Of a stretch of DNA of 3,343 nucleotides, positions 1-3,343 are shown piece by piece; position 1 is the first letter of the stretch, and each line of letters opens with the position of its first letter. The stretch lies in sequence record PZ195125.1; one strand, written 5' to 3'. Under the pieces are notes generated by a model that was given only the letters and a program-made list of their open reading frames with translations, was not told where the DNA came from and did not search any database. The translations under genes and the position numbers were made by a program. The stretch is from a phage.

Positions 1-50
1 ACCATGCCGTCAGGTTTAGGTGACGGTATATTCCATATACCGGAGGATCT
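1..50 (+). promoter_or_regulatory. Partial 5' untranslated leader of the maturation gene, with a stem-loop and the maturation-gene ribosome binding site
   Basis: Seen in sequence: positions 4-12 (AUGCCGUCA) pair with 21-29 (UGACGGUAU) to give a 9-bp stem (one G-U pair) closing an 8-nt loop GGUUUAGG (13-20). A Shine-Dalgarno GGAGGA lies at 42-47, 3 nt before the ATG at 51. An in-frame stop TGA at 21-23 closes the maturation reading frame upstream, so no longer N-terminal extension is possible. The window does not begin with the GGG typical of levivirus 5' termini, so the leader is probably truncated. Confidence 0.6.
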
Positions 51-1223
51 ATGTTTCCGAAGTCAAATATCGATAGAAATTACAGGATTAAACTTATCTC
101 TTACGATAAGAAAGGGAAGCTTGTTTCCGACGACTCTTTTGAGCAAGTCGAAAACTATCTCTTTCAGAATCGTTCGAGTACGTATAAACCTGGTTATATC
201 CGTCGCGACTTTCGAAGACCGACTAACTTCTGGAACGGCTATCGCTGTTTCAATCAGCCAGTCGGTACCTTCACTCGGAAACTCTCTGATGGTGGGAGAC
301 AAGTTGCTGATTACGGCATCGTGAACCCTAATAAGTTCACTGCCAATAGCCAGCACTTGGGGGACAACATGGTAATTTACCCTGGTCCCTTTTCTATAAA
401 CATTGATCAGCGTGCTTCTGTTGAAGTCCTCAATAAGCTTTCACAATCAAACCTCAATATTGGGGTTGCAATTGCTGAAGCTAAGATGACTGCTTCATTA
501 CTCGCTAAACAATCTATAGCTCTCATCAGAGCCTACACTGCTGCAAAGCGCGGTAATTGGCGAGAGGTGTTTTCTCAACTCCTCATCTCCGAACACCGTT
601 TCAGAGCTCCTGCTAAGGATCTCGGAGGTCGATGGCTCGAACTGCAGTACGGTTGGTTACCCCTTATGAGCGATTTGAAGGCTGCATATGATTTGCTTAC
701 GCAAACCAAATTGCCTGCTTTCATGCCCCTGAGGGTTACCCGCACCGTTGGCGGAACGCACAACTACATAGTGCGCAACGTCGAATCTGCAGGGGATACT
801 TGGTCCTATAGCGATCGTTTATCGGTGAACTACCGAATATGGTACTTCATTTCCGATCCGCGCCTCGCATGGGCTAGTTCCCTCGGGCTTCTTAACCCTT
901 TAGAAATTTATTGGGAAAAGACGCCCTGGTCGTTCGTTGTTGACTGGTTCTTACCTGTCGGTAATCTTATAGAAGCCATGAGTAATCCTCTTGGCCTCGA
1001 TATTATCTCCGGCACGAAGACCTGGCAACTTGAATCAAAACTCAATGCGACGCTTCTGGCTCCGGGTTGGTCTGGGACTGCAAAGTTGTCTGCATACGCG
1101 AAAGCATATGACAGATCTACTTTCTATTCCTTCCCTACCCCTCTGCCTTACGTGAAATCTCCACTTAGTGGTCTTCACTTAGCGAATGCATTGGCCTTAA
1201 TCAACCAACGCCTGAAAAGGTAA
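51..1223 (+). CDS. mat: Maturation (A / assembly) protein of an ssRNA phage, 390 aa; pilus-binding attachment protein present in one copy per virion
   Basis: A 1173-nt ORF that is first in gene order and preceded by a strong SD (GGAGGA 42-47). Its length of 390 aa matches what I recall for the GA maturation protein (MS2 is 393 aa). The translation contains blocks I recognise as conserved in levivirus A proteins, e.g. [54 protein letters not shown] and [19 protein letters not shown]. Stop TAA at 1221-1223. Confidence 0.93.
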
Positions 1224-1239
1224 TTACGGAGTTAGCCAT

Positions 1240-1632
1240 ATGGCAACTTTACGCAGTTTCGTACTCGTCGATAATGGCGGTACGGGGAATGTTACTGTCG
1301 TTCCTGTTAGCAATGCCAACGGCGTCGCTGAGTGGCTTTCTAATAACTCGCGCAGTCAAGCTTATCGCGTAACTGCCAGTTATCGTGCGTCAGGCGCAGA
1401 CAAGCGCAAATACACCATCAAACTCGAAGTGCCGAAAATCGTCACTCAGGTTGTGAACGGTGTTGAGCTGCCTGTTTCTGCCTGGAAGGCTTACGCCTCC
1501 ATTGACCTGACCATCCCTATCTTTGCTGCAACCGACGATGTGACCGTTATTTCCAAGTCACTCGCTGGCCTGTTCAAAGTTGGGAACCCTATCGCTGACG
1601 CCATCTCTTCTCAGAGTGGCTTCTACGCGTAA
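1240..1632 (+). CDS. cp: Coat (capsid) protein, 130 aa including the initiator Met; also the translational repressor of the replicase gene
   Basis: ORF with SD GGAG at 1228-1231, 8 nt before the ATG at 1240. The translation MATLRSFVLVDNGGTGNVTVVPVSNANGVAEWLSNNSRSQAYRVTAS...IPIFAATDD...GNPIADAISSQSGFYA is, from memory, near-identical to the Escherichia phage GA coat protein and clearly homologous to the MS2 coat (FVLVDNGGTG, NGVAEWISSNSRSQAYKVT, TIPIFA, GNPIP). Stop TAA at 1630-1632. Confidence 0.96.
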   Translation: MATLRSFVLVDNGGTGNVTVVPVSNANGVAEWLSNNSRSQAYRVTASYRASGADKRKYTIKLEVPKIVTQVVNGVELPVSAWKAYASIDLTIPIFAATDDVTVISKSLAGLFKVGNPIADAISSQSGFYA

Positions 1633-1823
1633 TGGGTCTGAAAGCAAAACATAAGGAAAACCTATGTTCCGATTCACAGAGATCGAAAAGACTCTATGTA
1701 TGGATCGCACTCGCGATTGTGCTGTCCGATTTCACGTCTATCTTCAGTCATTGGATTTGGGGTCTTCTGATCCTCATTCTCCGGACTTTGATGGACTTGC
1801 CTACCTTCGTGATGAATGTTTAA
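1632..1823 (+). CDS. lys: Lysis protein L, 63 aa; small single-pass membrane protein
   Basis: The ATG at 1632-1634 shares its A with the coat stop codon (UAAUG at 1630-1634). The ORF is in a different frame from the replicase and overlaps its first 160 nt. The translation has a basic N-terminus (MGLKAKHK...RSKR) followed by a long hydrophobic stretch LYVWIALAIVLSDFTSIFSHWIWGLLILILRTL, including an LS dipeptide as in the essential LS motif of MS2 L. It aligns by eye with MS2 L (…RSSTLYVLIFLAIFLSKFTNQLL…). Size and position match the lysis gene of group II leviviruses. No convincing SD lies upstream, consistent with translation coupled to coat termination. Confidence 0.85.
   Translation: MGLKAKHKENLCSDSQRSKRLYVWIALAIVLSDFTSIFSHWIWGLLILILRTLMDLPTFVMNV
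1649..1667 (+). promoter_or_regulatory. Translational operator hairpin (coat-protein binding site) containing the replicase start codon
   Basis: Seen in sequence: ACAUA-A-GG-AAAA-CC-UAUGU. The lower stem is 1649-1653 paired with 1663-1667 (5 bp), with a bulged A at 1654, an upper stem GG 1655-1656 paired with CC 1661-1662, and a 4-nt loop AAAA 1657-1660. The replicase AUG (1664-1666) sits in the 3' arm and the SD-like AAGGA (1653-1657) in the 5' arm. This has the same architecture as the MS2 operator ACAUGAGGAUUACCCAUGU (bulged A, 2-bp upper stem, 4-nt loop). Confidence 0.88.
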
Positions 1824-3262
1824 CTAAACATCCTTCACTTGGAGATAGTAATTCGGACGCACGCCGTAAGGAATTGGCATATGCCAAACTTATGGATAGT
1901 GATCAAAGATGCAAAATCCAAAACAGTAACGGATACGACTACTCTCATATCGAGAGTGGCGTACTGAACGGCATACTCAAGACCGCTCAGGCCCTTGTGG
2001 CAAACTTGCTTACGGGTTTTGAATCTCACTTCCTGAACGATTGTTCATTCTCCAATGGAGCCTCACAAGGGTTCAAGTTGCGGGATGCAGCGCCGTTTAA
2101 GAAGATCGCTGGGCAAGCAACCGTTACAGCTCCTGCTTATGGCATCGCCGTAGCCGCCGTTAAAACGTGCGCGCCGTGGTATGCTTATATGCAGGAAACG
2201 TATGGCGATGAGACCAAATGGTTTCGTCGGGTATACGGCAACGGTTTGTTTTCTGTTCCGAAGAACAATAAAATAGATCGGGCTGCCTGTAAGGAGCCTG
2301 ATATGAATATGTACCTCCAGAAAGGGGCGGGATCTTTTATAAGAAAACGCCTTCGTTCCGTTGGTATAGATCTTAACGATCAAACGCGCAATCAGGAATT
2401 AGCCCGACTTGGCAGCATTGATGGTTCACTCGCTACTATTGATCTTAGTAGCGCTAGTGATTCTATCTCTGACCGTCTCGTCTGGGATCTACTTCCACCG
2501 CACGTTTATTCATACCTCGCTCGTATCCGTTCGTCTTTCACCATGATCGACGGGCGGTTACATAAGTGGGGTCTATTTTCTACCATGGGAAACGGCTTTA
2601 CGTTCGAACTCGAGTCCATGATCTTTTGGGCTCTGAGTAGGAGTGTCATGCTGTCCATGGGTGTTACTGGCTCATTAGGCATCTACGGTGACGATATAAT
2701 CGTTCCTGTAGAATGTGCCCCAACCCTCCTTAAGGTACTATCCGCCGTAAACTTTCTTCCAAATGAGAAGAAGACGTTTATAACGGGTTACTTTCGTGAG
2801 AGTTGTGGTGCTCATTTCTTTAAGGGTGCCGACATGAAACCTTTTTACTGCAAGCGGCCAATGGAAACCCTTCCCGATGTCATGTTGCTTTGCAACAGGA
2901 TAAGGGGTTGGCAGACCGTTGGTGGAATGTCAGATCCGCGGCTCTTCCCAATTTGGAAGGAGTTTGCTGATATGATTCCGCCGAAGTTTAAGGGTGGATG
3001 TAACCTGGATCGCGATACTTACCTCGTTTCACCGGATAAACCCGGTGTCACATTGGTTCGTATCGCTAAGGTGCGCTCTGGTTTTAACCACGCGTTCCCG
3101 TACGGTCATGAAAATGGCCGCTACGTCCACTGGTTACATATGGGATCGGGAGAAGTTCTCGAGACCATATCCTCCGCCAGGTTTAGGTGTAAACCTAACT
3201 CGGAATGGAGAACACAGATCCCTCTATTTCCTCAGGAATTAGAGGCCTGCGTTCTCTCCTGA
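1664..3262 (+). CDS. rep: RNA-dependent RNA polymerase (replicase beta subunit), 532 aa
   Basis: A 1599-nt ORF that is last in gene order. The catalytic motif C, YGDD, is at 2684-2695 in the context GSLGIYGDDIIVP. A motif-A-like acidic block IDLSSASDSISD lies at 2438-2473. Long stretches match the MS2 replicase as I recall it (VPKNNKIDRAACKEPDMNMYLQKG, GSxDGSLATIDLSSASDSISDRLVW, FSTMGNGFTFELESMIFWA, KTFxxGxFRESCGAHF, KPFY, GGMSDPRL). Stop TGA at 3260-3262. Confidence 0.96.
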   Translation: MFRFTEIEKTLCMDRTRDCAVRFHVYLQSLDLGSSDPHSPDFDGLAYLRDECLTKHPSLGDSNSDARRKELAYAKLMDSDQRCKIQNSNGYDYSHIESGVLNGILKTAQALVANLLTGFESHFLNDCSFSNGASQGFKLRDAAPFKKIAGQATVTAPAYGIAVAAVKTCAPWYAYMQETYGDETKWFRRVYGNGLFSVPKNNKIDRAACKEPDMNMYLQKGAGSFIRKRLRSVGIDLNDQTRNQELARLGSIDGSLATIDLSSASDSISDRLVWDLLPPHVYSYLARIRSSFTMIDGRLHKWGLFSTMGNGFTFELESMIFWALSRSVMLSMGVTGSLGIYGDDIIVPVECAPTLLKVLSAVNFLPNEKKTFITGYFRESCGAHFFKGADMKPFYCKRPMETLPDVMLLCNRIRGWQTVGGMSDPRLFPIWKEFADMIPPKFKGGCNLDRDTYLVSPDKPGVTLVRIAKVRSGFNHAFPYGHENGRYVHWLHMGSGEVLETISSARFRCKPNSEWRTQIPLFPQELEACVLS

Positions 3263-3343
3263 TAGTGTCAGGACCTCCCCGGACGGGGTGGGTGTGACCG
3301 AAAGGCCACTATGGAGGTGAATCCTCCACCGCCCAAAAGGCGG
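3263..3343 (+). other. 3' untranslated region (partial) with a series of short stable hairpins; cis-acting replication domain
   Basis: Seen in sequence: (a) CCCC 3277-3280 / GGGG 3285-3288 with loop GGAC; (b) GUG(A)CC 3294-3299 / GG(C)CAC 3304-3309 with a GAAA tetraloop 3300-3303; (c) GGAGG 3313-3317 / CCUCC 3323-3327 with loop UGAAU; (d) CCGCC 3329-3333 / GGCGG 3339-3343 with loop CAAAA. The window ends in GGCGG rather than the CCCA characteristic of levivirus 3' termini, so the extreme 3' end appears to be missing. Confidence 0.6.

Follow-up and report, generated by a model that had tools for sequence, protein, structure and literature searches.

Sequence record PZ195125.1 as a very probable near-complete copy of a GA-like RNA coliphage genome

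Does the 3,343-nucleotide (nt) phage sequence PZ195125.1, which we analyzed at its full length and refer to as the window, represent a DNA locus or the genome of an RNA phage? The answer matters mainly for correct annotation: recognition as an RNA phage avoids spurious promoters, terminators and minus-strand open reading frames (ORFs), and it accounts both for the gene overlaps and for the extreme conservation around nt 1600-1800. A first-pass annotation made from the sequence alone had proposed a near-complete GA-like levivirus genome. The data collated here lead us to the same view. With a probability of roughly 97%, the window is a complementary DNA (cDNA) that covers approximately 96% of the plus-strand genome of an F-specific RNA coliphage of genogroup II, which belongs to Emesvirus japonicum and, within this species, to the sublineage of GA, DL20 and DL10. 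None of the features that we tested contradicted the assignment to GA-like Emesvirus japonicum.

Identity and taxonomic placement

Megablast comparison of the window with 50,697 phage records retrieved genogroup II phages as end-to-end matches. BZ13 strain DL20 (FJ483839.1, a clam isolate from Narragansett Bay) aligned over the whole window with 95.5% nt identity, as did GA (X03869 / NC_001426), the prototype of genogroup II, with 94.4%, and BZ13 strain DL10 with 94.3%. T72 (FJ483838) and KU1 (AF227250) followed with 85.7 and 85.2% identity, respectively, over approximately 99% of the window. The group II records matched were all classified as Fiersviridae, Emesvirus japonicum. The alignment with DL20 is collinear, with 151 nt differences and no insertion or deletion (indel) over 3343 nt, while GA differs by 185 mismatches and by two indels of one base each, which are located in untranslated regions (UTRs). 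The nt similarity to group II phages is therefore genome-wide, as had been anticipated. Matches to MS2-type records were confined to the conserved replicase core (nt 2237-2632, 12% of the window, 74-76% identity).

The predicted proteins follow the same gradient. Compared with DL20, identity was 98.2% for the maturation protein, 99.2% for the coat protein, 100% for the lysis protein and 98.7% for the replicase. The corresponding values for GA were 97.4% (10 amino acid differences), 97.7% (127/130, three differences to X03869), 95.2% (60/63, three differences) and 97.6% (13 differences), and those for KU1 were approximately 89.5%, 96% and 96%, and 90.4%. The replicase was 97.6% identical to that of DL10 and 90.4% identical to that of T72, and the lysis protein was 100% identical to that of the full-length Logan contig L030. 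Only approximately 44% (maturation), 63% (coat), 40% (lysis) and 53% (replicase) of aligned positions were identical in MS2. The coat protein had been described in the first-pass annotation as almost identical to that of GA, with more than 90% identity as the suggested check, and the 97.7% found here bear this out. In its mature form, it agrees in 128/129 positions with the crystallized GA capsid protein (PDB 1GAV), the single change being D to E, and it also matches the MS2 and fr capsid chains with E-values of 1e-48 to 1e-50.

Replicase amino acid identity cut-offs of 80% for species and 50% for genera were set by the ICTV in 2021 (PMC8743537). With 97.6-98.7% identity to GA and DL20 and 90.4% to KU1, versus 53% to MS2, the window falls into Emesvirus japonicum, and thus into a species other than that of MS2, and the 53% identity to MS2 exceeds the genus cut-off. 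The earlier wording of an "MS2/GA group" therefore holds for the GA species, but the kinship to MS2 is looser. The comparison with GA needs a similar adjustment: GA is close, but an uncultured Logan contig (95.8% identity) and DL20 are slightly closer.

The status of an F-specific RNA coliphage, defined by a virion genome of single-stranded RNA, entry into E. coli via the F pilus and membership in serogroup II, is suggested by 94-99% identity to cultured F-specific isolates, with indirect support from the absence of the sequence from collections of DNA replicons (see below). By analogy with these isolates, RNA nature, infectivity, F-pilus dependence and the individual regulatory steps would all extend to the present strain.

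Genes and RNA elements

The four genes are complete and lie on the plus strand in the order maturation, coat, lysis and replicase, with a small separate lysis gene that overlaps the replicase gene. Both the order, as seen from ORF map and Pfam families, and the protein sizes of 390, 130, 63 and 532 amino acids were as first annotated. The gene for the maturation (A or assembly) protein (390 amino acids) extends from nt 51 to 1223 (Pfam Phage_mat-A, 2e-61), and that for the coat protein (130 amino acids, 129 without the methionine) from nt 1240 to 1632 (Levi_coat, 1.6e-38). They are followed by the genes for the lysis protein (63 amino acids, nt 1632-1823; Phage_MS2_lysis, 3.3e-07) and for the beta subunit of the RNA replicase, the RNA-dependent RNA polymerase (532 amino acids, nt 1664-3262; RNA_replicase_B, 3.8e-219). 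All four proteins passed the curated Pfam cut-offs, including the lysis protein with 30.6 bits versus a cut-off of 25. The replicase contains the expected YGDD motif (residues 341-344, nt 2684-2695), and also the upstream motifs DLSSASD and MGNGFTFELES. A coat read-through (A1) protein, the absence of which is a feature of Emesvirus (formerly Levivirus, with groups I and II), can be excluded, because the next in-frame stop codon (UGA) is located only three codons past the coat UAA.

All other ORFs of 60-106 codons, on either strand, are interrupted in other group II strains, so that only the plus-strand genes are conserved, in line with the first-pass claim that all coding is on this strand. 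The rejected candidates, namely the alternative plus-strand ORFs 4-324 (106 amino acids) and 2994-3242 (82 amino acids) and the minus-strand ORFs 2063-2383, 63-356, 1835-2029 and 575-763, all contain stops in GA, DL10, KU1 or T72. ORF 4-324 begins with an ATG of the 5' UTR, extends into the maturation gene and stays open in the window as well as in DL20 and L030. In GA, DL10 and KU1, a 1-nt indel of the UTR shifts its frame and stops interrupt it, and it is thus not a conserved gene.

The RNA elements around the lysis gene are those of GA, in which gene order, all four protein lengths and the stem-loops for lysis control and coat binding are the same as in the window. The hairpin at nt 1649-1667 (plus strand), which encloses the replicase AUG (nt 1664-1666), is the predicted coat-protein binding operator. 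In the minimum free energy fold, it has the form ACAUA-A-GG/AAAA/CC-UAUGU, with 5 base pairs (bp), a bulged A at nt 1654, 2 further bp and an AAAA loop. It is identical to a stem-loop that is annotated in GA as potentially coat-binding (GA nt 1733-1753), and it is invariant in 14/14 group II sequences examined, DL20, KU1 and T72 among them. The presence of an operator hairpin on the replicase AUG, like that of the YGDD motif, had been correctly recognized in the first-pass annotation. The hairpin differs from the MS2 consensus in one stem pair, where both bases are replaced and G-C becomes A-U, and in its loop, which reads AAAA where MS2 has AUUA. In the coat protein, the residues aligned to K43, N55 and N87 of MS2 are R, K and S; these are the positions that we take to separate GA from MS2 in operator recognition.

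Coat and lysis genes meet in a UAAUG junction (nt 1630-1634, plus strand), in which the coat TAA (nt 1630-1632) shares one base with the lysis ATG (nt 1632-1634). This junction is identical in GA, DL20, DL10 and the contigs L030-L034, whereas KU1, T72 and three IMG/VR contigs (L008, L010 and L015) have an insertion of approximately 21 nt and a UUG-initiated lysis protein of 64 amino acids. The UAAUG sequence, the 63-residue lysis protein and the lack of a coat-lysis insertion together place the window in Emesvirus japonicum, GA-like sublineage. A hairpin shortly before the lysis start (nt 1597-1621, plus strand; -9.7 kcal/mol, z = -2.4) corresponds to the GA misc_feature 1683-1707, to which a "potential function in lysis gene control" is ascribed. 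Single mismatches occur in the stem in some strains.

The lysis protein has a basic amino-terminal part that is followed by a hydrophobic segment, and both this segment and a Leu-Ser dipeptide align with MS2 L. These are the domains and the dipeptide described for L-type lysis proteins (bioRxiv 10.1101/2023.10.16.562596), and the 63-residue protein is accordingly predicted to be of L-type architecture. MS2 (V00642) also shares the overall architecture, the regulatory logic, the shape of the operator (bulged A, 4-nt loop) and the YGDD motif with the window. However, unlike in the window, the lysis gene of MS2 begins inside the coat gene (at nt 1678, with the coat gene ending at nt 1727) and encodes 75 amino acids.

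Relative to KU1 and T72, conservation is uneven along the genome. In the region 1601-1900, where the lysis and replicase genes overlap and the operator is located, identity to these two phages still reaches 97-99.5%, compared with 75-90% for the rest of the genome, which fits the constraint that two overlapping reading frames and the operator RNA would be expected to impose. The lysis gene itself is identical at the nt level to that of DL20 (100%), and 97-98% identical to those of KU1 and T72. A second conserved island, which comprises the last part of the maturation gene together with the coat start (nt 1201-1400), is 95-98% identical to KU1 and T72. It includes the maturation-coat intergenic spacer (nt 1224-1239, plus strand), which is the same in DL20 and GA and contains the coat Shine-Dalgarno sequence GGAG (nt 1228-1231). 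In the fold of spacer and coat start, the coat AUG lies inside a small hairpin.

With regard to the mode of action, we transfer the established levivirus scheme to this strain by homology. The scheme includes operator repression, translation of lysis and replicase genes in dependence on coat translation, and translation of the maturation gene from nascent strands (PMC6071253). The genomic RNA itself would serve as the mRNA, with ribosome entry mainly at the coat gene. Of the ribosomes that end at the coat UAA, a small fraction would reinitiate at the overlapping lysis AUG of the UAAUG junction, which would give small amounts of the membrane-directed L-type lysis protein. Translation of the coat gene would also unfold the RNA, and the replicase start would become accessible to ribosomes. 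Late in infection, coat dimers would bind to the hairpin at the replicase AUG, shutting off replicase synthesis and nucleating packaging. The maturation gene would be read only from nascent strands, before an upstream segment of the 5' UTR sequesters its Shine-Dalgarno sequence, and copying of the RNA from the 3' end would be the task of the YGDD subunit of the replicase in concert with host factors.

Alternative readings

A DNA locus could take the form of either cDNA cloned into a plasmid, or a copy that resides, integrated or endogenous, in a bacterial genome. The window is supplied in DNA letters and lacks its natural termini, as may be the case for a cloned or amplified fragment, but truncated ends are also typical of RNA-virus assemblies from sequencing reads. 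No vector or host sequence flanks the window, and the sequences most closely related to it are short contigs from Logan and IMG/VR that do not exceed genome length. Megablast was negative for 72,556 plasmids and 5,426 complete E. coli genomes, and the replicase had no relative in 185,579 species-representative bacterial and archaeal genomes (GTDB). Best hits to a DNA replicon, which the first-pass annotation had named as the outcome that would speak against an RNA phage, were therefore not obtained. The annotation had also denied the presence of DNA promoters and terminators, which would not apply to a phage without a DNA stage. Indeed, the numbers of sigma-70-like promoter motifs (3 versus 3.9 ± 2.2 in shuffled sequence) and of intrinsic-terminator-like motifs (2 versus 3.1 ± 1.7) in the window are not in excess of the shuffled level. 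Taken together, we regard a DNA origin of the window as extremely improbable.

It is similarly hard to believe that the window comes from a genogroup I phage (MS2-like, Emesvirus zinderi), or from a natural group I/II recombinant of the kind seen in the JS strains DL52 and DL54. Gene order and Pfam families are as in MS2, MS2 records do match nt 2237-2632, and environmental levivirus recombinants have been reported (PMC3499819). Moreover, the MS2-type 5' terminus of the DL20 record ends exactly where the window starts. However, the MS2 match covers just an eighth or so of the window, MS2 protein identities are low, and nt 1-50 of the window share only a 7-nt chance match with the MS2 5' region. 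Compared with GA and DL20, identity stays at a uniform 89-99% along the window, and mosaicism inside the window was rejected, as the nearest relative did not change in 200-nt sliding windows. A group I or recombinant origin is therefore refuted for the 3343 nt that are present, and could hold only for the missing 86 nt at the 5' end. The remaining question is whether, within group II, the phage could belong to the sublineage of KU1 and T72 (JP34-like) instead of the GA-like one. KU1 is a member of the same species, as seen from the replicase identity, its lysis gene is very similar at the nt level, and the operator hairpin and the nearly identical lysis/replicase overlap do not set it apart. 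Yet, overall nt identity is 85% to KU1 and T72, as opposed to 94-96% to GA, DL20, DL10 and L030, and the 3' UTRs of KU1 and T72 are divergent from that of the window (approximately 76% identity). The window also lacks the insertion of approximately 21 nt, and its lysis protein has 63 rather than 64 residues and starts with the AUG of UAAUG and not with a separate UUG. Junction sequence and distance matrix thus refute this placement, to which we attach next to no probability.

Some observations nevertheless count against the assignment to a GA-like RNA phage, or against parts of it. The only Rfam match in the window, to the MS2 operator family RF02359 (nt 1647-1667, E = 0.48), scores 18.1 bits, which is below the gathering score of 40 bits and insignificant on its own; other Rfam families were not found in the window at E <= 1. 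The low score is explained by the MS2-specific model, as the loop and one base pair are of GA type, and the operator prediction stands because of the position of the hairpin, its identity to the element annotated in GA, and its invariance. The very same invariance makes covariation evidence impossible within group II. Furthermore, as given, the window without both termini would not be a replication-competent molecule. Finally, a long-range contact of the coat gene is not distinguishable from background. The "Min Jou" long-distance pairing of MS2 presumably involves nt 1427-1434 and 1738-1745, within which V00642 has 7 bp of complementarity. A 6-bp complement (GCUUUC / GAAAGC) connects the coat gene with sequence just upstream of the operator in the window (nt 1335-1340 / 1640-1645), a few nt off the MS2-homologous position and with both arms invariant in 14 group II sequences, but such a 6-mer is found in 75% of shuffled coat genes and the pairing is thus not above chance. 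We treat it as an unproven candidate.

Termini, strain distinctness and the DL20 5' end

The window corresponds to nt 87-3429 of the 3466 nt of GA. It therefore falls 78-88 nt short at the 5' end and 37 nt short at the 3' end, and the native termini of a complete genome are absent, namely the GG(G)-initiated 5' terminal hairpin and the 3' end ...ACCACCCA with its terminal hairpin. For the complete genome, a 3' end of ...UUCUCGGUGACUAGUUUGCUUGGCUAGUCACCACCCA is expected. The incomplete termini have no effect on the taxonomic assignment. The lost ends carry the 5' regulatory partner of the maturation ribosome-binding site and the 3' initiation site for the replicase. The 3' part of the 5' UTR that is present (nt 1-50, plus strand) aligns to GA nt 87-135 and contains the maturation Shine-Dalgarno sequence GGAGG (nt 42-46). 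The full 5' UTR of L030 folds into a terminal hairpin and a multi-branch structure (-64.8 kcal/mol, z = -6.1), where the Shine-Dalgarno region GGAGGAU of the maturation gene is paired with an AUCCUU located upstream, and this AUCCUU falls into the part that is absent from the window. The incomplete 3' UTR (nt 3263-3343, plus strand) aligns to GA nt 3348-3429 and forms 4 small hairpins. Three pairs of the consensus fold for 6 group II sequences are maintained through double changes, and the fold of the complete GA 3' UTR has a z-score of -3.9.

The first-pass judgment that this is a well-characterized genome type and not a novel system is shared by us, as every tested feature was GA-like. Genome type, genes, capsid structure and regulation have been known since the 1980s-1990s, there is nothing mechanistically new, and the new content is strain-level sequence only. 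At this level, the window is a distinct strain, which differs by 4-5% from every full-length record searched. Its nearest relatives of full length are the uncultured Logan contig and DL20 mentioned above, and the best partial match is another Logan contig with 97.4% identity over 2.1 kb. The exact coat protein is present in 5 Logan contigs, whereas the exact replicase protein was not found in an index of 153 billion genes. Scans of IMG/VR and JGI metagenomes gave nothing closer, their only matches being GA itself or partial contigs of KU1 type. According to the distance matrix, the window is about equidistant (4-6%) from DL20, GA, DL10 and L030, which are 5-6% apart from each other.

The differences bear the marks of selection. 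Relative to DL20, they are distributed over codon positions 1/2/3 as 6/4/52 in the maturation gene and as 7/4/55 in the replicase gene. Approximately 85% of the differences from relatives are in third positions or synonymous, and none of the four genes has an internal stop. Third-position bias and lack of internal stops point to a replicating lineage under purifying selection and not to sequencing noise. Among the group II sequences examined, 28 nt are private to the window (20 synonymous, 7 non-synonymous and 1 non-coding). The maturation protein has the private amino acid changes K12R, V13I, N43S and K240I, and the replicase has D160G, K326R and T373I (window positions 85-178, 769, 2142, 2640 and 2781), so that 3/4 of the maturation changes are located within the amino-terminal 43 residues. 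Phenotypic effects of the 7 changes are conceivable.

F-specific RNA coliphages of genogroup II serve as indicators of faecal pollution from humans, and in wastewater this genogroup is dominated by DL20-like strains (PMC6963950). An additional divergent strain sequence is modestly useful for the design of primers and probes and for the description of strain diversity, while it neither raises nor resolves a mechanistic question.

The DL20 record deviates from the other group II records at its 5' end. Its 5' terminus is MS2-like (nt 1-78, approximately 98% identity), and nt 1-84 share 97.6% identity with nt 1-82 of MS2. No alignment of this terminus is possible with those of GA, KU1 and L030, which are similar to one another. 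The point of the switch is a shared ACCATG that corresponds to nt 1-6 of the window; the independent Logan contig L033 starts at the same place, and the T72 record 3 nt downstream. The MS2-like segment has no counterpart in the window itself. The switch in DL20 could mean that the record is a chimera made in the laboratory, or it could mark a natural point of exchange between groups I and II. That ACCAUG at nt 1-6 is a natural recombination joint of group I and group II 5' termini, and that the private amino acid changes might have phenotypic consequences, is a combination that we consider very unlikely. If the joint were natural, the lineage of the window might circulate with alternative 5' modules for replication and translation control.

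Two minor observations concern other records. The coat protein of GA record X03869 (1986) has A59 and G79 (methionine counted), where the window, DL20, DL10, KU1, T72 and 1GAV have T and V. X03869 is thus the outlier at codons 59 and 79, which could reflect either a difference between stocks or an early sequencing error. In addition, replicases with 52-59% identity to that of the window are encoded by the uncultured metagenome contigs L037, L038, L040, L042 and L043 (OGVK/OGVH/FUIF) and by the IMG/VR contig L007. With a distance similar to that of MS2, these contigs may represent further lineages at the level of Emesvirus, as judged from the replicase comparison.

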